The notes under the pieces: model-generated | Seen by the model: only the letters and a program-made list of their open reading frames with translations | Told to the model about the DNA's origin: nothing | Database searches by the model: none | Shown here: positions 3,149-39,300 of the stretch, piece by piece | Position numbering within the stretch: position 1 is the stretch's first letter | Layout: each line of letters opens with the position of its first letter | Translations under genes and position numbers: made by a program | Sequence record: OP978391.1 | Source: Escherichia phage HP3.2 | DNA length: 64,000 nucleotides | Reading direction: 5' to 3' (one strand)

Positions 3149-4858
3149 TTAAACCATTACAGTAAATCGACCAACTTTCTTCATTTGAAGATGCTGACCA
3201 TATTCTTGCGGGTCATGGTCTTTATGCGAAATTATAAAAACATTAGTGTTTTTCATTGAATTTATAATATTAGCTACACCTTTAATACCTTCGGCATCAA
3301 ATGACCCATCAAACACTTCATCAAGAATTAATGTACTAATACTAACACCAGATACGATAGAAGCAATATCACGCCAAGTAAATAAAAGAGCAATATCAAT
3401 TCGTGCCTTTTCACCTTCACTAAATGAAGCATAACTAAAATCTTCACGACCACGGGATTTAATTGTCTCATTAAATTCTTCATCTAATGTAAACACATAA
3501 TCCGCTTCCATTATTTTAAGATAATGGTTAATCTGCTTATTAAATAATGGAATGTACTTTTTAATAATAGCACCTTTAATACCAGAATCTTTGAGCATAT
3601 CAGTCAAAATTCCTCGGTGGTATTTTTCCATTACTAAATTAGTTTTTGTCTTAACAATTTTATCAAGTTCTTCTTGAAGCAGTGCTATTTCATCAGCATG
3701 GTCAATAAACTCGGATGATGCTTTTTCTATAGCTGCTTTAACTTTTTTAGCTTTATCTACTGTCGTGATTAGAGATTGCTTTTTATTGCGAATATCATTT
3801 GCCAACGACTGCTGGGTTTTAATATTATCTCGGTATTCATCAACAAGAACTTTTAAATTATCACGGTGCGTTGAAAGCTGTTCAAACGAATGCGTACATT
3901 CAGAAACTTTATCTTTAATTTTAGAAACAACTTTATCACCGGAACTTAATTGTGACAAACAGGTTGGACATAATCCACCTTCGTGATACATATTAATGAC
4001 TTTATTATACGAGTCAATTTTTGATTTAATTAAAACTGCTTCTTGACCGATTTTATTAAATGCATCAGTCGGGTCTTCATCTAAAACAATATTAACTAAT
4101 CTTTCATTAGCTTCTTCTATTTCCGATTTTAGCGTTCTAGCTTCTTTTGCCAAATCATCATACATATTTTGTAGACGAGTAAGGTTGTCACCCGTTAATT
4201 TTTTCTGGCGTTCAACGTTATCATTATATATTTTAATTTGTTGGATAATACTATCTTTTTTAACATCAAGCACTTGGTTTTGTGAATTTAATTCACGTAT
4301 TAGTGCTTTATTAAGCTTATCCATTTCAGCTAATGTTCCTACCTCAAGCAGGTCTTCCACAAGCTTTCTTCGCGCAGGGGTCGACAAACCCATGAAAGGG
4401 GTATACCCTGCTGTACCAAGGACAACAATCTGCTTGAAACTGGCATATGACATTCCGATAAGCTGTTCAAATTCTGCTTGGAAATCTTTACTGCTGGCAG
4501 ATTCATTAAGACGTGTACCGTTAACGGTGATTTCGAAAACGTTTGGTTTTTGTCCTCTTTTGATATAGTACTTTTTCTCATCATATTCCATCCACAGTTC
4601 AACTAAAAGTTCTTTCTTATTTGTGCTGTTTATTAATTGACCTTTCTTAACATCACGAAATGGTTTACCGAAAAGTCCGAAAGTAATGGCTTCTAACATC
4701 GTAGATTTACCACCGCCATTTTTACCTGTGATTAAGGTCTTTTGGACTTTATCTAATTGGATATCGATAAAATTTTGCCCCTCGAATCCATCATCATCTT
4801 TAACGTCCATTTCGACTTCAAGCCTGAGTCCAGCATTGTTAAATTCATCTAAAGTCAT
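3149..4858 (-). CDS. 46: Recombination nuclease subunit gp46 (Rad50/SbcC-like ATPase)
   Basis: 569-aa ORF; Walker A GKNGGGKST, long coiled-coil middle, C-terminal LILDEVFDG signature; ATGA overlap with gene 47 stop; exact start uncertain. Confidence 0.85.
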   Translation of the reverse strand: MTLDEFNNAGLRLEVEMDVKDDDGFEGQNFIDIQLDKVQKTLITGKNGGGKSTMLEAITFGLFGKPFRDVKKGQLINSTNKKELLVELWMEYDEKKYYIKRGQKPNVFEITVNGTRLNESASSKDFQAEFEQLIGMSYASFKQIVVLGTAGYTPFMGLSTPARRKLVEDLLEVGTLAEMDKLNKALIRELNSQNQVLDVKKDSIIQQIKIYNDNVERQKKLTGDNLTRLQNMYDDLAKEARTLKSEIEEANERLVNIVLDEDPTDAFNKIGQEAVLIKSKIDSYNKVINMYHEGGLCPTCLSQLSSGDKVVSKIKDKVSECTHSFEQLSTHRDNLKVLVDEYRDNIKTQQSLANDIRNKKQSLITTVDKAKKVKAAIEKASSEFIDHADEIALLQEELDKIVKTKTNLVMEKYHRGILTDMLKDSGIKGAIIKKYIPLFNKQINHYLKIMEADYVFTLDEEFNETIKSRGREDFSYASFSEGEKARIDIALLFTWRDIASIVSGVSISTLILDEVFDGSFDAEGIKGVANIINSMKNTNVFIISHKDHDPQEYGQHLQMKKVGRFTVMV

Positions 4859-5874
4859 TGTGTTGCCTCTACATATAGCTGATTTGCATATTGAATAAGT
4901 GCTTCACGGTCAGAATCAGTGATGTCTGGAATTGCATTAATATACTCTTCCATTAATGTCTGAAGCGATTGGACTTCAACTTCTTCACTGTCATCTGACT
5001 CGACAGAGTTATCAATCTTTGACACAACTCGTAATGAATGCACAACTTTTTCTAGTTCAGATTCGAACTTCGTTAGATTTTTGTCTACTTCAGTTACTAT
5101 AACACGTACTGATAGATTTGTAAAATCTTTATAGTCAATTTTTCCTTTAAATGGATAATGAATTCTACGATGCCAGGTAGTATTGTTTGGAATAAATTCC
5201 ATTCGTTCTGTTTCTGTATCAAACATCCAGAACCCGCGAGGGTCATTCTCGTCACCTGCAGTTAGTGTCCATGGTGTCCCAATATATCTGACGTTAGCAG
5301 CCTCAGAGATAGTATGGAAGTGACCAGACCACACTTCTTTATAAGTCTTAAGGAAATCAGGTTCAAGACCATGAGATTTCATTCCTTTATAAAAATAAAA
5401 TCCATTCAGTTCCCAGTGACCAACACAAAAAGAAGCAGATGAAGTTTTGATGTGCTCAAGAATTTCACCAGTATTTTCTTCACACATCCAAGGAATTAAA
5501 TCAATTAAACATCCGTCAAAATCTACTGTAGTAGGCTTATCATATACTTTAACATTAGGATATTTAGCCAAAAGCTCAGTAGAGGCATTTGGATGCATTA
5601 CATTTTTGTAGTGGAGATCGTGATTTCCTACAATAGTATGTAATGTGATTCCAGCGTCATCAAGCATTTGAACTATTTCACGGGCAAACTCCATAGTTTT
5701 ATGCGTGATCGCTTTTCGTACATCAAAAATATCACCGTATTGAATCCATACAGTAATTCCATTTTTCTTAGAATATTCTATCGCTTGCTTAATTCCATCA
5801 ATTTGAATACCGCGAATCCATTCATCATCAGCTTTAACACCTAAATGCCAATCACCTAAATTTAAAATTTTCAT
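4855..5874 (-). CDS. 47: Recombination nuclease subunit gp47 (Mre11/SbcD-like)
   Basis: 339-aa ORF MKILNLGDWHLG...; phosphoesterase motifs GDxxD, GNHD. Confidence 0.9.
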   Translation of the reverse strand: MKILNLGDWHLGVKADDEWIRGIQIDGIKQAIEYSKKNGITVWIQYGDIFDVRKAITHKTMEFAREIVQMLDDAGITLHTIVGNHDLHYKNVMHPNASTELLAKYPNVKVYDKPTTVDFDGCLIDLIPWMCEENTGEILEHIKTSSASFCVGHWELNGFYFYKGMKSHGLEPDFLKTYKEVWSGHFHTISEAANVRYIGTPWTLTAGDENDPRGFWMFDTETERMEFIPNNTTWHRRIHYPFKGKIDYKDFTNLSVRVIVTEVDKNLTKFESELEKVVHSLRVVSKIDNSVESDDSEEVEVQSLQTLMEEYINAIPDITDSDREALIQYANQLYVEATQ

Positions 5875-33286: not shown

Positions 33287-33703
33287 TTAAATGTAAATAT
33301 TTTTGCCGTAATACTTATACCAGTGTGGCTTCATTAAAATTTTTTCATCGAGTCGTTGTTGACTCAACTTAATAGCTGATTTGCATGGATTATAATCATT
33401 TTTCCATTCTACTGGAATATCGCTGATGTCAGGAACTTCAGTATCTTTTATACTGAACCCGCGTTTTAAGCATTCCGTTATAATGTCCGATTGACGCTTT
33501 CGCAAAAATTCTAACTTATCGTAAAAGAAAGTAACATGACCAGAACCTAAAATAAATTTAGAAGATATTTTAAAATCTTTAACGCGCTTACCGTTTGCCA
33601 CATGCTTACGAACTATACCAAAAACACGCGGCAATTCACGGTATTCTGCGATTAAATGTTGATCAGCAAGTTCAGATACTAAAGTCAAATTAATACGAGT
33701 CAT
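33287..33703 (-). CDS. denV: Endonuclease V (pyrimidine-dimer DNA glycosylase)
   Basis: 138-aa [32 protein letters not shown]...; matches T4 DenV from memory. Confidence 0.9.
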
Positions 33704-33721
33704 TTTATCCCTCCAAGTAAC

Positions 33722-33758
33722 TGTGAATATACTATCACAATTCTAGGAGAAAGTAAAC
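33722..33758 (-). promoter_or_regulatory. T4-type early promoter upstream of denV
   Basis: Minus strand reads GTTTAC, spacer, then TGATAGTAT. Confidence 0.4.
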
Positions 33759-33762
33759 AACT

Positions 33763-34293
<531 letters not shown>

Positions 34294-34734
34294 TTAAAAG
34301 AGGCTGTTCATTATTCGGTAAAGTGAAGGACCCATCACATATTGCCACTGAGTACGAGGAATAAGAGCAAAAGCATCCATCTCTGGAATCATAACGCCAT
34401 CTTTATTTTCAAAATAAGACTCGCAATGGCAATTTCTAAACATCTCATGCTCTACTGGAATCGTATAATAAAATAACTGTAAGTCTTTATTACTAGAATA
34501 TTTAAATACACCTAGGTCTTCTAGAAGGTCTGGATTATAATTGCTAAAACCGGTCTCTTCTAAGCATTCTCTTTTTGCAGCTTCCAGTGCATTCAAATCA
34601 GAACTTTCTACACGTCCCTTTGGAATATCCCAGCGATGTGCCATCATTCCAGGCTTACGAGAACCAGTAACCCGACCCATAAATAAATCTTTATCTTCTG
34701 TCATGAAGATAATACCAGCTGATAATGTTTTCAT
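34294..34734 (-). CDS. nudE: Nudix hydrolase NudE
   Basis: Nudix box GRVESSDLNALEAAKRECLEETGF; start placed at MKTLSAGIIF to give an ATGA overlap (ORF track extends to 34749). Confidence 0.75.
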   Translation of the reverse strand: MKTLSAGIIFMTEDKDLFMGRVTGSRKPGMMAHRWDIPKGRVESSDLNALEAAKRECLEETGFSNYNPDLLEDLGVFKYSSNKDLQLFYYTIPVEHEMFRNCHCESYFENKDGVMIPEMDAFALIPRTQWQYVMGPSLYRIMNSLF

Positions 34735-35219
34735 TTTAATTTCCTGCATTCAGTGATAAAGTTATTTAAATTTTGAGCATATTTCTTTTCATCAAAAATC
34801 TTTTGTTGTCTGCGTAAACGCCATGGCATTTCAATGAACATACGCCATATTCCTGATAATACTGCTGCTGTAAAAATATTAACAAGTATAGTTAAAAGAA
34901 CCCAATCTCCTATTCTGTCCATTGGATTTTTTATAAAAAAGTAAAATACGAACGATGATATAGGAAGACTAATGATATACCACAGAAGAACCTTCTTATC
35001 TGTGAACCAATCAGCATTCGTTAACTTAGCGCGACCGTTTTGAATACATACGAACTTATCATCTGTTACAGTAAATGGCTTAGCTGCTTGATATCCCATT
35101 CTAAACTCCCTAATCAACAAATTTTTCATATCTTCGGAACAACCATTCCAGTCAACTCTATCAACTGAAATGCCATCATCCCCATCATCTAAATCATACC
35201 AGCGAGTTTTTAAAATCAT
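34731..35219 (-). CDS. Membrane protein in tandem array
   Basis: 162-aa ORF with C-terminal hydrophobic segments; ends NFITECRKLK. Confidence 0.5.
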   Translation of the reverse strand: MILKTRWYDLDDGDDGISVDRVDWNGCSEDMKNLLIREFRMGYQAAKPFTVTDDKFVCIQNGRAKLTNADWFTDKKVLLWYIISLPISSFVFYFFIKNPMDRIGDWVLLTILVNIFTAAVLSGIWRMFIEMPWRLRRQQKIFDEKKYAQNLNNFITECRKLK

Positions 35220-35578
35220 TTAATTTTCCTACAATCACTCACAAACTCTTTCATTGACTCATTTTCAATATAAGACATGTAGCTATTATATTCTTTTAAT
35301 TGTATTTTGTAATCTTTTTTTCTTTGCCAATTTATTTTAAAATTATCATAATGAAAATATAAAATGATACCAAAGAATGAAAACAATGAAATAATTTTAG
35401 TATAACAAAGCTCACTCCAAACTTCTGTTATATTTACTGTGCCGTCGATGTTTAAAATAAGACAGTCAATTAACAATCCAAAAAGACTACCTGCAAGAGC
35501 TGCAGCCAACGCCACAGCAAAAATTAAAAATGACTCAGAAAACGAATATTTGACTTTATTTAGTTTTGGCTTTTGCAT
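35216..35578 (-). CDS. Membrane protein in tandem array
   Basis: 120-aa ORF with two hydrophobic segments; ends KEFVSDCRKIK. Confidence 0.5.
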   Translation of the reverse strand: MQKPKLNKVKYSFSESFLIFAVALAAALAGSLFGLLIDCLILNIDGTVNITEVWSELCYTKIISLFSFFGIILYFHYDNFKINWQRKKDYKIQLKEYNSYMSYIENESMKEFVSDCRKIK

Positions 35579-35973
35579 CGTGATTCCTTAACAAATTTCA
35601 TAATTTCATCAAATTCATACGCAGCAAGTTTAAGCTGATGTTCCTTTTTAATCTTTTTACACTGTGCTTTCCAATCACGTACGCGTTTACGATAATGCCT
35701 TCCTTGATACCAGTATCCTACCCAATTTACGGGTACTAATAAAAGTGGAACTATTAATGGAAGAATTAGCATTAACACAAGTATTTCGCCAGAATCAATA
35801 TCAGTCATAACATCTAAAACACCTCCAATAATCAATAGAATTACAAATGATATGAGTATAACAGGACCTATTAACACATCAGTAGAAATTATCTGACGCT
35901 TTAATTCATACTTCAACGGTTTACTTGGAAGGTATAGTGATGGCTTTGACATATTCTCTACATTCCTTAACAA
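35560..35973 (-). CDS. Membrane protein in tandem array
   Basis: 137-aa ORF with two hydrophobic segments; ends MKFVKESRCKSQN. Confidence 0.5.
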   Translation of the reverse strand: MLRNVENMSKPSLYLPSKPLKYELKRQIISTDVLIGPVILISFVILLIIGGVLDVMTDIDSGEILVLMLILPLIVPLLLVPVNWVGYWYQGRHYRKRVRDWKAQCKKIKKEHQLKLAAYEFDEIMKFVKESRCKSQN

Positions 35974-36529
35974 ATTTTTCTAGTAATAAATCACTTTCAA
36001 AATTGGGATTTTCTACAAATTTATCAAAAAGATCATCAACAATAGTTAAGATATTCTTTTTACTAAGAATACGTTTATTTTCATGCTTCGTTTCAGAATC
36101 AACTATAAGAGTAAAGAAATATTTCTTGCCCTGAAATTTTACAGTAGTATCAATATAAAATAAATTTGACTTTTGTAAATTACGTTTAAACCATGCGTCA
36201 CTTAAACTATAAACACCGAGATAATCAAAATCGTCGTTTAAATAACAAACCGTCCATTCAGGAGAAATGAAATCAGTAAATTCAACATCAAAATCACACG
36301 TCAATGAATGAATTGATTCAATACTGTTAATGAGTATTCCAGGACGTATTAAAGACTTTTTACCTCTAGAAAATCTTCCGGAAAGGCTTTCATCAGTTTC
36401 ATATGAAGACCCCCAATAGTAATTACGTCCTTCTGCCATGCGTTTAAGAGCATTTAGTAATTGGTCTGGAACATCAACCTGTCTTTGAAACTCTTCAAAC
36501 ATTGAATTGAAATCACTTTGCATTTTCAT
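35921..36529 (-). CDS. Hypothetical protein in tandem array
   Basis: 202-aa ORF; ends EKFVKECREYVKAITIPSK. Confidence 0.5.
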   Translation of the reverse strand: MKMQSDFNSMFEEFQRQVDVPDQLLNALKRMAEGRNYYWGSSYETDESLSGRFSRGKKSLIRPGILINSIESIHSLTCDFDVEFTDFISPEWTVCYLNDDFDYLGVYSLSDAWFKRNLQKSNLFYIDTTVKFQGKKYFFTLIVDSETKHENKRILSKKNILTIVDDLFDKFVENPNFESDLLLEKFVKECREYVKAITIPSK

Positions 36530-36548
36530 TCCTATTTACTCCAAGTAA

Positions 36549-36568
36549 TAGGGGCCCGAAGCCCCTTA
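36549..36568 (-). terminator. GC-rich stem-loop (GGGGCTTCGGGCCCC)
   Basis: Hairpin directly after the stop of ORF 36572..37165. Confidence 0.45.
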
Positions 36569-36571
36569 TCA

Positions 36572-37165
36572 TTATTTCAGAGAATTAATATATTCCTGAA
36601 CATCGGCAGAGGTAGTTTCAACCCCAGAAATATTACCATTAAAGGTTTCAACTCGAGCAAGAGTATCTTCAATATCAACCTTAGTCAGTGCTGCAATTTC
36701 AACTACATCATCAGCAGTACTAATTCCAAGGGCATTCGCTGCACGAGTTTCACGGATATATTCCAATTTAACCGCAAGTTCTTGACGAGCATCATCTAAC
36801 TCAACTACTTTCTTGGCGATTTCAATTCGCATTTCAGCATAACCGTCAGCCTTAGTAGTCAACTGCTCAGCTGTTCGACGATATAGTAAACCGAGTTTAG
36901 CATGCATTGTTACATCTTGGCCTTCGGAAAGAAGTTTACGAATTTCACGCTCTTTTGATTCGGCCTGTCGATTCTTTTCGATAACAAGTTCACGAATACG
37001 TTTTTCTTCGTTAATAGATTTAACAGAAGCAGTTTTTAGATCTTTAATTTTATCAAGTAGTTTTGCTGCTGCAGCAGTATACTGTTCTTCGACAGATAGA
37101 TTTTTAGCCATAGCAGAACCAAGTTTAGTGCGAATAAACTCAACAATTTTCTTCAGTGTGTTCAT
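36572..37165 (-). CDS. PspA/IM30-like coiled-coil protein
   Basis: 197-aa heptad-rich ORF; segment [11 protein letters not shown] resembles PspA VDDTLARMK. Confidence 0.45.
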
Positions 37166-37759: not shown

Positions 37760-38323
37760 TTATTTACCTAGTTTACTTATTATAGCTTCTGCAGCAGCTT
37801 TTAGCTTAGATGCAGTGTTAATACGATTTTTAATTTCAGTATACGCATCGCCAAGAACATCAAGGCTATCAGAATAAACACTTACACTATTGCGTTCGCT
37901 ATTTGAAATAGAACCTTTAGTTTTGCGGTCAAAATCGGTGTACACGTCTTGAAGATCGCGGGCTGCCTTCTTTGCATCATCCAATGCATCAAGAGCTTTA
38001 TTCAAAGCATTAACGTATTTTTTAGTGTCGAACATATTCTTAGAAATTTTAACAGGTGCGCGTTCAGGAGTAGCTAACACAGATTTAGGAACCTGAGCGC
38101 CAGATGCCAATTTCTTAGAAATTTTGAAAAATGCTTTATTGAATTTATTTTCTTGACTCATTGTAAAAGAACTATTATCGATGTTGTACATTTCAATAGC
38201 TTTAGCTTTCCACTTAAGAAAATCGCCGCGGTCTTTTGGGTCCAATTGGAAGAATACTTTAGTAAGATCTGCTTCAGATGGTAATTTTGCTGCTTCGGTT
38301 AAAAATTCGGCATAGGTTTTCAT
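37760..38323 (-). CDS. Internal-protein-like protein with capsid-targeting N-terminus
   Basis: 187-aa ORF starting MKTYAEFLTE, which resembles the T4 internal-protein capsid-targeting sequence MKTYQEFIAE with an LxE cleavage site. Confidence 0.6.
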   Translation of the reverse strand: MKTYAEFLTEAAKLPSEADLTKVFFQLDPKDRGDFLKWKAKAIEMYNIDNSSFTMSQENKFNKAFFKISKKLASGAQVPKSVLATPERAPVKISKNMFDTKKYVNALNKALDALDDAKKAARDLQDVYTDFDRKTKGSISNSERNSVSVYSDSLDVLGDAYTEIKNRINTASKLKAAAEAIISKLGK

Positions 38324-38448: not shown

Positions 38449-38922
38449 TCATTTGATTTGTTTAGCAGACCAAATGCGGTCTTTAATAATTTTTTGGATG
38501 TCTTCAACATACTCAAGAGAGTGAACATGTGGATTATCTTTGAAACTATAAGCACGGGCTAACTTTTGGCCTTCGGTTTTGATTACTAAAAGCTCTTTAA
38601 GGATAGCTTCATATTTAGCGATAATTCCTTTAACGATATTTTTTTCTTGTGCCGCTTTAGGATCTGCTTTAGGAGCAGGTTTACCCGAAGCCTTTGCAAA
38701 AGCAGCGCCAGTAGCAACTAAACTTTTCCAGGCCATACTAACTGCATTTCCCGTAAATCCTTCCGCTTTCATGTCGCGTGCAAACTGGAATCGCGATTCA
38801 TCAGAAGCATCTTTATAGGAATATTTACCCGCGGCAATGGCAGCTTTTGCAACAGCTTGAATTTCGGTGCTAGATGCTTCATTTAACACCGCTTCATTTA
38901 AAAATTGAGTATATGATTTCAT
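38449..38922 (-). CDS. Internal-protein-like protein with capsid-targeting N-terminus
   Basis: Start taken at MKSYTQFLNE (157 aa) after AGGAAA; Ala/Lys-rich body; the longer track ORF crosses the promoter and terminator. Confidence 0.55.
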   Translation of the reverse strand: MKSYTQFLNEAVLNEASSTEIQAVAKAAIAAGKYSYKDASDESRFQFARDMKAEGFTGNAVSMAWKSLVATGAAFAKASGKPAPKADPKAAQEKNIVKGIIAKYEAILKELLVIKTEGQKLARAYSFKDNPHVHSLEYVEDIQKIIKDRIWSAKQIK

Positions 38923-38950
38923 CTTATTTCCTATTTTAATTTGTAGATTT

Positions 38951-38970
38951 AATATACTAATATTTATACC
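38951..38970 (-). promoter_or_regulatory. T4 late promoter (TATAAATA) for the 38449..38922 gene
   Basis: Minus strand reads GGTATAAATATTAG, with TATAAATA about 40 nt upstream of the ATG. Confidence 0.55.
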
Positions 38971-39001
38971 AAAAAGCCCCAACCTTTCGGTCGGGGCTAA
39001 G
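38971..39001 (-). terminator. Rho-independent terminator (repeat copy 2)
   Basis: Identical 31-nt hairpin plus U-tract as at 38414..38444. Confidence 0.6.
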
Positions 39002-39039
39002 CCTTGCGGCAACCTTGTCGGGGTTCCACCTGCTAAGGC

Positions 39040-39300
39040 AAGTGTTTGTACGAAACGCCGGGATTCGAACCCGGTTATTAAGTAGTTGACGCTACTCAAT
39101 ATTTTTAAAAGGCCATATCTCGACCATATCCGAACGTTCCGTCAAAAACGCTACTCGGCTTACGGCAAAGATATTTCCTCGAATCGATAATTCGGTGCGC
39201 CGTTTCTGCTGTGATAGTAAAGAGCCAGAACACAGTAAAACTGTGGGAGGAAACTATACTCCAGGGAACATCAGTCCGACGACTTACCGGTAGCGACCCG
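39040..39300 (-). ncRNA. Candidate structured non-coding RNA
   Basis: About 260 nt with no ORF on either strand, locally GC-richer, several stem-loops including a tRNA T-arm-like hairpin CCGGGTTCGAATCCCGG; bounded 3' by the 38971..39001 terminator. Confidence 0.35.

Follow-up and report, generated by a model that had tools for sequence, protein, structure and literature searches.

Related C-terminal tails of the e.2–e.5 gene products in a T4-type phage and the initiation regions that lie within them

In the 64,000-nt stretch of Escherichia phage HP3.2 that we analyzed (record OP978391.1; hereafter the window), four consecutive genes on the minus strand, the homologues of T4 e.5, e.4, e.3, and e.2, end in related peptides, and the codons for each peptide also carry the start of the next gene. 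Which of these two messages has been conserved? A preliminary description of this DNA held that a repeated initiation region is the conserved unit and that it imposes the peptide on the gene upstream. The explanation that we consider probable runs in the opposite direction: a tail conserved as protein hosts the initiation regions, the junctions resemble each other only in pairs, one such pair bounds an insertion or deletion of e.2, and the genes would be translationally coupled and their tails would have a partner in common. The array genes are listed here, with every ending given up to its stop codon.

35921-36529, minus strand: e.5 homologue, 202 aa, predicted to be soluble, no hydrophobic segment; tail ..EKFVKECREYVKAITIPSK (also written ..LLLEKFVKECREYVKAITIPSK); PHROG 2607, E = 5e-110
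35560-35952, minus strand: e.4 homologue, 130 aa, two transmembrane helices predicted from hydropathy; tail ..MKFVKESRCKSQN (also written ..EIMKFVKESRCKSQN); PHROG 2604
35216-35578, minus strand: e.3 homologue, 120 aa, two transmembrane helices predicted from hydropathy; tail ..KEFVSDCRKIK (also written ..ESMKEFVSDCRKIK); PHROG 2330
34731-35219, minus strand: e.2 homologue, 162 aa; tail ..NNFITECRKLK (also written ..NLNNFITECRKLK); PHROG 2203 and PF26896, hydropathy

Databases list the four genes as separate families with no function assigned. Their PHROG profile matches have E values of 5e-110 to 1e-58, and among precomputed Pfam assignments, PF26873 is found on homologues of e.4 and PF26896 on homologues of e.2. 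Around the array, 2.5 kb match Escherichia phage HP3 at 100% identity and ~500 Tequatrovirus records at 92-99%; for e.2 to e.5, DNA identity across about 500 such records is 92-100%. The prediction that three of the products are small two-helix membrane proteins was borne out for e.2 (in which a soluble N-terminal part precedes the two predicted transmembrane helices), e.3, and e.4, with e.5 predicted to be soluble; it rests on hydropathy and, for e.4, on an AlphaFold2 model.

The four related tails are exactly those given in the preliminary description. The expression F[IV].[ED][CS]R has five matches in the six-frame translation of the window, and likewise five in the whole HP3 genome used for comparison (168 kb, complete). 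Four of the five are the tails of e.5, e.4, e.3, and e.2, all within 11 residues of the stop, and the fifth is an internal FINDSR. When residues were shuffled within the 110 annotated proteins of the window, 0.05 matches were expected on average, and with four seen we conclude that the peptide observation is real and far beyond chance.

35957..35974, minus strand: motif FVKECR of e.5, codons TTT GTT AAG GAA TGT AGA
35578..35595, minus strand: motif FVKESR of e.4, codons TTT GTT AAG GAA TCA CGA; its last A doubles as the A of the e.3 start codon
35228..35245, minus strand: motif FVSDCR of e.3, codons TTT GTG AGT GAT TGT AGG
34743..34760, minus strand: motif FITECR of e.2, codons TTT ATC ACT GAA TGC AGG

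The HP3 tails share the protein-level motif Φ-x-x-F-[I/V]-x-[E/D]-[C/S]-R, and as judged from the tails of other genera, its cross-genus form is Φ(-3)-x-x-F-[I/V]-x-x-C-R. With the expression F[IV]..CR, 15 of 16 matches in open reading frames (ORFs) of at least 50 aa, from all loci examined and the HP3 genome, lie within 11 residues of the stop. We give practically no credence to an origin by chance or composition, in which AT-rich coding ends and Shine-Dalgarno (SD) context alone would yield such similarity. The genome is AT-rich, and unrelated SD-containing pairs of initiation regions also reach 16-nt local matches, but the excess over the shuffled expectation falls on adjacent genes and always at the C terminus, and the recurrence of the motif in five further genera refutes this view.

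About 20 genes located between e.6 or the tRNA genes and nudE or e, in six genera of the Tevenvirinae, carry the motif:

Tequatrovirus: e.5, e.4, e.3, and e.2
Mosigvirus: e.5, e.4, and e.3
Dhakavirus: orf125, an e.3-like gene ending FIKECKS, and e.2
Karamvirus CC31: p141 (FIRMCRK plus 11 residues), p139 (FINDCRKARK), p138 (FITECRGKNEIQS), p137 (FISRCRIKR), and p136 (FIQGIRGTR)
Jiaodavirus KP179: genes ending FIKYCRERVQK, FVKEVRRK, WIRSCRK, and FIAKCRAK
Kanagawavirus PEi20: genes ending FIQMCRRNQNVSS and FIKGCRNGRN

Two of the KP179 ORFs (locus L092) are unannotated, one at ~4150-4445 that encodes two helices and ends WIRSCRK, and one of ~100 aa at ~5450-5760 that ends FIAKCRAK. The motif was not seen next to nudE in Slopekvirus phiEap-3. 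A scan of IMG/VR for codons spelling NFIxECRK gave, outside T4-like phages, only internal or noncoding chance matches, so the motif is not a widespread C-terminal tag. The genes that follow this kind of tail differ by genus (e.2, nudE, a GWVSSSxxC-family gene, or an orf112-like gene). The GWVSSSxxC genes are themselves a second tandem family beside the array in Mosigvirus, Dhakavirus, and Kanagawavirus; they encode small proteins that end G-W-V-S-S-S-x-x-C (L007 3234-4028, L055 2348-3139, L093 1707-1907), and TAAGGAA..ATG directly follows most of them.

With the spacing that the motif has, positions -3, 0, +1, and +4 fall on the same side of a helix. The e.4 model, which at a pLDDT of 65 is informative for helix boundaries only, has helices at residues 24-48, 54-106, and 111-127, and the motif lies within the last of these. 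In an alignment of 18 e.4 sequences, the invariant positions cluster in an N-terminal stretch and in the cytoplasmic tail, and the transmembrane core is variable. An internal stretch of e.4 (residues 91-103, window 35650-35690), VRDWKAQCKKIK, resembles the CRKIK and CRKLK ends of e.3 and e.2, with pairwise E values of 0.12-0.16.

At the DNA level, the preliminary description proposed one repeated element of ~25 nt, comprising the SD and the start of the next gene in another frame and closing with an ATGA overlap; this cassette would be the conserved unit and would impose the peptide upstream. The junctions were set against every pairing of the 110 initiation regions annotated in the window. 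The e5/e4 and e4/e3 junctions have an exact 16-mer, AAATTTGTTAAGGAAT, in common, which puts them in the top 0.07% of pairs, although 16-nt matches also occur between unrelated SD-containing initiation regions:

35962..35977, minus strand: copy of the 16-mer AAATTTGTTAAGGAAT at the end of e.5
35583..35598, minus strand: copy of the same 16-mer at the end of e.4

Anchored on their start codons, the e3/e2 and e2/nudE junctions have 20 of 30 positions in common (top 0.08%). None of the four cross pairs rises above background, where a fraction of 0.12-0.92 of the pairs is at least as similar. Thus no single element is common to all junctions: they are alike only pairwise, and the proposed consensus joins two different pairs end to end. 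ATGA-type overlaps are present at e3/e2 and e2/nudE, but e5/e4 and e4/e3 overlap by 32 nt and 19 nt. A fifth junction had been placed upstream of 36529; there we find a 42-nt spacer that lacks such a motif and contains a GC-rich UUCG hairpin. This hairpin, GGGGC UUCG GCCCC, lies in the spacer between e.6 and e.5 (window 36548-36569), has no clear T-run on the coding strand, and may be an RNA-stability or processing element.

The part of the proposal that held at all four junctions is the location of the SD and start codon of the next gene inside the last codons of the gene upstream:

35963..35969, minus strand: UAAGGAA, the SD-like run of e.4; it falls on codons V-K-E of e.5 and is 10 nt from the AUG at 35952; anti-SD duplex of -6.1 kcal/mol
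35584..35590, minus strand: UAAGGAA, the SD-like run of e.3; it falls on codons V-K-E of e.4 and is 5 nt from the AUG at 35578
35226..35230, minus strand: AGGAA, the SD-like run of e.2; it falls on codons R-K of e.3 and is 6 nt from the AUG at 35219
34741..34745, minus strand: AGGAA, the SD-like run of nudE; it falls on codons R-K of e.2 and is 6 nt from the AUG at 34734

As the initiation signals and the peptide occupy the same bases, we compared their register and their codons across junctions and genera. In HP3, the Phe codon and the downstream AUG are 22 nt apart at e5/e4, 17 nt at e4/e3, and 26 nt at both e3/e2 and e2/nudE. Over 18 junctions this distance ranges from 17 to 40 nt, and the SD begins anywhere from codon 2 to codon 10 of the motif, being spelled by K-E (AAGGAA), by R-K (AGGAAA), or by codons past the motif, depending on the junction. 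In all tails collected, the Arg of the motif is encoded by AGA, AGG, CGA, CGT, or CGC, with silent variation also at Cys (TGT/TGC) and Phe (TTT/TTC), and the Val/Ile position is GTT, GTG, ATT, or ATC.

Orthologs illustrate this. The Mosigvirus e.3 product, 37% identical to that of HP3, ends ENFIKECRK; its codons are TTT ATT AAG GAA TGT AGA AAA, and those of HP3 are TTT GTG AGT GAT TGT AGG AAA. The e.2 product of Dhakavirus IME08 (~30% identity by BLASTP, 32% by tblastn) ends NSFIEECRK, and here ATC and AGG of HP3 are replaced by ATT and CGT. In e.4, TTT and CGA of HP3 correspond to TTC and AGA in Mosigvirus. For F, I/V, E/D, C, and R, the changes fall mainly at sites where they are silent or conservative, and the free position x tracks the SD, being K, E, or M if the SD lies there and S or T otherwise.

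The motif is also present without an overlapping initiation region. IME08 orf125, a 180-aa gene located after e.6, ends ..KLNRFIAECREYAKEVQNGTA and uses CGC and TAC; its motif codons, TTT ATT GCT GAA TGT CGC, contain no SD-like run, and the SD of the gene that follows (AAAGAGG) begins 27 nt past the Phe codon. In KP179, the unannotated ~100-aa ORF between nudE and e, which ends ..LELFIAKCRAK, has no overlapping downstream gene; the next start is ~45 nt further on and has its own AGGAGG.

The variable register, the silent codon variation, and the occurrence of the motif without an overlapping initiation region indicate that the peptide is not imposed by the initiation region. These results contradict that part of the preliminary description and reverse its causal order: what is conserved across six genera is the tail as a peptide rather than the junction. 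We therefore regard an initiation cassette as the conserved unit as very unlikely, even though it accommodates several features: SDs and AUGs do sit in tail codons, the identity of x and the alternative endings CRK(I/L)K and CRK follow the SD register, the two junctions flanking e.4 resemble each other in DNA, as do the two flanking e.2, and a 25-nt stretch at e5/e4 is identical in two genera. Beyond HP3, a junction scan of IMG/VR with TTYRTNRAGGARTGYMGNAAATGA gave matches outside T4-like phages that we rejected as initiation-region look-alikes upstream of a ParA-like gene: TTTATGGAGGAATGTCGAAAATGA lies just upstream of this gene in about 20 related contigs of ~50 kb (L024-L029, L033-L038, L041, L042, L045-L047, L049, L050). 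The look-alike stands in a stop-to-stop frame of merely ~23-60 codons, which shows that the SD part of the junction is generic.

Conservation at the RNA level could take another form, in which the junctions are operators bound by a translational repressor such as RegA or by some other RNA-binding factor. RegA sites are A+U-rich and unstructured, include the AUG, and have a 5' A-tract, and a consensus obtained by systematic evolution of ligands by exponential enrichment (SELEX) is aaAAUUGUUAUGUAA (PMC3014915). The e3/e2 sequence GGAAAAUUAAAUGA and the e2/nudE sequence GGAAAUUAAAAUGA loosely fit this description, a likeness to the 5' half of the SELEX consensus is seen in the 16-mer AAAUUUGUUAAGGAAU, and for the most part the junctions have little RNA structure. 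Such likenesses are loose and unspecific, however, as many T4 initiation regions are alike in this way; the array genes are not listed as RegA targets in the RegA literature examined; and an operator would leave unexplained why the peptide is kept while its codons vary silently and the register shifts. We consider this alternative highly improbable.

A more serious alternative is that e.2, e.3, e.4, and their CC31 and KP179 relatives descend from one two-helix gene by tandem duplication, the tail being simply the slowest-evolving part, and that the soluble members acquired it by in-frame fusion with a remnant of a paralog. The two-helix genes are adjacent and similar in size, and their products have in common two hydrophobic helices followed by a basic stretch. 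With tails kept, an alignment of e.3 with e.4 extends over 34 columns (E = 1.5e-4, probability 52%). CC31p136 and CC31p137 weakly resemble e.4 and e.2, respectively, after tail removal (E = 0.004-0.03), and a natural e.4::e.2 fusion that joins the first transmembrane helices (TM1s), described below, shows a route by which a tail can be transferred.

When the tails were removed, comparisons between groups gave hhalign E values of 0.013-0.72 with probabilities of at most 3%, from shallow alignments (Neff about 1.7) of low power, and in a 16-sequence set phmmer gave E values of at least 0.02, only orthologous groups being significantly similar. The products of e.5, IME08 orf125, and CC31p141 are predicted to be soluble, and each has exactly 11 residues after the motif Arg. 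Their bodies are mutually dissimilar; that of orf125 is not like e.5, with BLASTP and hhalign aligning only 15-17 tail residues. To the extent that these searches can detect it, the bodies of the carriers, which include two-helix membrane proteins and soluble proteins, are not homologous across groups; homologous bodies, which the preliminary description named as a ground for its own refutation, were not detected. Tandem paralogy as the whole answer thus seems to us the less likely course, albeit one of some weight.

Recombination at the junctions had also been predicted, and we found one clean case. The e.2 gene is flanked by an 18-bp imperfect direct repeat, TGYAGGAAA(A)TTAAA(A)TGA, the copies of which (written TG(T/C)AGGAAAATTAAATGA and TGCAGGAAATTAAAATGA) are identical at 16 of 18 positions in T4-type sequences:

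35216..35233, minus strand: left repeat copy, TGTAGGAAAATTAAATGA or TGYAGGAAAATTAAATGA (TGC in T4)
34731..34748, minus strand: right repeat copy, TGCAGGAAATTAAAATGA

In T2, IME340, SYGD1, Ec3-ASingh, and the IMG/VR locus L006, e.2 is missing exactly between the copies, and the e.3 tail is joined to nudE through a single hybrid copy, ..GATTGCAGGAAATTAAAATGAAAACA.. Alleles of e.3 of both kinds, Ser and Ile, have the hybrid joint, and by a rough tblastn estimate ~56 of ~503 Tequatrovirus records lack e.2. From the sequences of the two forms, we infer that recombination or replication slippage between the copies removed (or added) a 489-bp e.2 cassette. The proposal that modules are shuffled by recombination between junction repeats is supported for the e.2 pair, with one clean indel. 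In T4 itself, e.2 (L001 3653-3961) is cut to 102 aa by a frameshift, an A6 run in HP3 being A5 in T4; the out-of-frame 3' part, with the tail and the nudE junction, is still there.

Two further variants affect e.3. In phage UFV11 (L012 1504-1824), the first 31 residues of e.4 are fused in frame with the C-terminal half of e.2 to give a product of 106 aa, e.3 having been removed; the joint is a TCCT microhomology within both TM1s. In Mosigvirus LF82-2 (L056 ~1970-2090), the body of e.3 is deleted (MQKP and a stop), and its last 30 codons and the junction with the next gene are kept; an internal ATG in this remnant could still yield a 25-aa peptide, MISYNELLAKRENETIENFIKECRK. These variants indicate that natural deletions at this locus keep the tail and the junction.

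The array and the genes on either side of it have the same order in T4 and HP3, e.6-e.5-e.4-e.3-e.2-nudE-e, all on the minus strand according to the annotations of both phages, from which the neighbors are taken:

36572-37165, minus strand: e.6
34294-34734, minus strand: nudE (Nudix hydrolase), the end of the overlapping run
33763-34257, minus strand: e (lysozyme)

For nudE, we prefer the start at 34734 to the annotated one at 34749: the ATG at 34734 is preceded by AGGAA at a distance of 6 nt, the same start is annotated in T2 and IME340, and no SD-like run was seen ahead of the ATG at 34749 (MQEIKMK..). The e.6 product ends VQEYINSLK (window 36572-36600), with small variants, in all four genera examined (Tequatrovirus, Mosigvirus, Dhakavirus, and Jiaodavirus); this end has hydrophobic residues at the spacing -3, 0, +1, +4 followed by a basic residue, as in the motif, without Cys-Arg. 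In HP3, denV directly adjoins e (window 33287-34257), and ipII and ipIII intervene in T4. The taxonomy line of the RefSeq record for HP3 (NC_041919.1) reads Rosemountvirus; the sequence is that of a typical Tequatrovirus.

How might these features fit together? These genomes are compact, so that the SD and AUG of a downstream gene fall in or just past the last codons of the gene upstream. The SD takes codons that are able to encode it, which may be x-E (RAGGAA), R-K (AGGAAA), or triplets past the motif. Its influence is limited to the free position x and to what follows Arg, so that the peptide is host to the initiation region rather than its product. From e.5 to nudE, the genes leave no space between them and are probably read as one message with coupling at the overlaps; such coupling is plausible because the downstream SDs and AUGs are embedded in tail codons, and the overlaps are what argues for it.

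The tail itself would form an amphipathic helix with its hydrophobic face at -3, 0, +1, and +4, and it probably contacts a candidate partner common to the array products or joins these products together. Deletions would survive only if they kept the downstream initiation region, and in doing so they would preserve the tail and allow it to be grafted onto new bodies.

Several observations weigh against parts of this explanation. The e.5 stretch GGAATGTAGAGAATATGTCAAAGCC is identical between HP3 and Mosigvirus, and the double load of coding and initiation region at e5/e4 could alone explain part of the conservation there. The acidic position of the motif is kept only in Tequatrovirus, Mosigvirus, and Dhakavirus, and e.4 has Ser or Ile at the position of the Cys. 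With the e.4 PHROG (2604), e.3 gives an E value of 1e-3 over nearly its full length, and a very old paralogy of the two-helix members, diverged beyond detection by sequence, is possible. Crossovers anywhere in the 9-nt identical core of the e.2 repeats would give the same product. As for coupling, the SD strengths in the array are ordinary, and a comparison of RNA folding with shuffled sequences gave z values of 0.8, 1.1, and -0.85 for three junctions, with no sequestering structure found. At e3/e2 (window 35177-35262), a hairpin of -14.2 kcal/mol, in which codons 4-6 of e.2 are base-paired with those for E-F in e.3, has a z value of -2.1, as one of four tests.

Taken further, the Φ-x-x-F-[I/V]-x-x-C-R helix might be a portable C-terminal address tag that brings otherwise unrelated early proteins, some with two membrane helices and one soluble, to a common partner or membrane complex, and that spreads and persists because in-frame deletions and fusions at this variable locus have to keep the initiation region inside it. 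We offer this idea tentatively and would sooner bet against it than for it; if it is true, a coding junction serves as an interaction motif and a recombination joint at once. A role in targeting to the prohead protease or the capsid, which we also considered, is unlikely, as three genera (Karamvirus, Jiaodavirus, and Kanagawavirus) do not keep the Glu and membrane proteins make up most of the carriers. The F-I-x-E part of the motif does resemble the N-terminal MKTYxEF[IL]xE of internal proteins. Two internal-protein-like genes in the window, at 37760-38323 and 38449-39099, contain the capsid-targeting sequences MKTYAEFLTE and MKSYTQFLNE with a motif-like F-[IL]-x-E core; the first is N-terminal, and the second is at an internal Met of the listed ORF that is probably the true start.

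Sequence searches of Pfam, NCBIfam, PADLOC, and the PDB gave no functional lead for e.2 to e.5. For e.5, an exhaustive HMMER search returned six matches, all close relatives, fragments, or a spurious repeat protein, and no distant homologues, and an AlphaFold2 model from the single sequence was unusable (pLDDT 38). We found no database record or publication that mentions the shared tail of e.2 to e.5, and we regard it as a modestly interesting new feature of a known T4 gene block rather than a new kind of system. Since the genome of T4 was sequenced, its e.2-e.8 block has gone without an assigned function, and the motif, kept in about 20 fast-evolving genes with dissimilar bodies, is the first common handle on it. 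Being short, the peptide lends itself to mutation, to use as bait, and to co-folding in the search for a partner. The array also carries a caution, in that a protein tail and the next ribosome binding site can lie on the same bases, and a cross-genus comparison of codons tells which of them is selected. The e.2 indel indicates that coding junction repeats, and not only intergenic ones, can be joints for gene loss in T-even phages.

In its arrangement, the array resembles the coupled overlapping genes of compact phage operons, with ATGA-type and longer overlaps: the SD lies inside the upstream ORF, and the overlaps are 4, 4, 19, and 32 nt. It is not different in kind from these, and overlapping starts are generic in the window, being found at 45 of 105 same-strand neighbor pairs (43%), of which 20 are ATGA-type. 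The intergenic units of T4-type genomes known as PeSLs consist of a σ70-type promoter and a terminator hairpin (PMC2839356). Like these, the e.2 repeats are short gene-boundary repeats in a variable T4-type region, where an indel between close relatives is bounded by two copies (PMC2839356; PMC4122927). They differ in being coding, as they comprise last codons, SD, and ATGA, and in being 18 bp long without a promoter or hairpin, and here only one clean indel is documented. No promoter-like site stands out at the junctions, the region having 21 such sites with 16 expected.

Another parallel, for the indel itself, is deletion between short direct repeats in T4, which was reportedly described in the classical rII deletion studies. 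The e.2 case is similar in having two copies in the long form, one hybrid copy in the short form, and a crossover in the 9-nt core, but its repeat doubles as a functional gene junction, so that the deletion leaves a perfectly joined e.3-nudE pair. For the tail, the nearest comparison is with the clamp-binding tails of T4 gp43, gp55, and gp33, which are C-terminal partner-binding peptides on unrelated proteins. In both cases a short, conserved C-terminal peptide is found on otherwise unrelated proteins of one phage; the sequences differ, and the likeness is one of analogy only.

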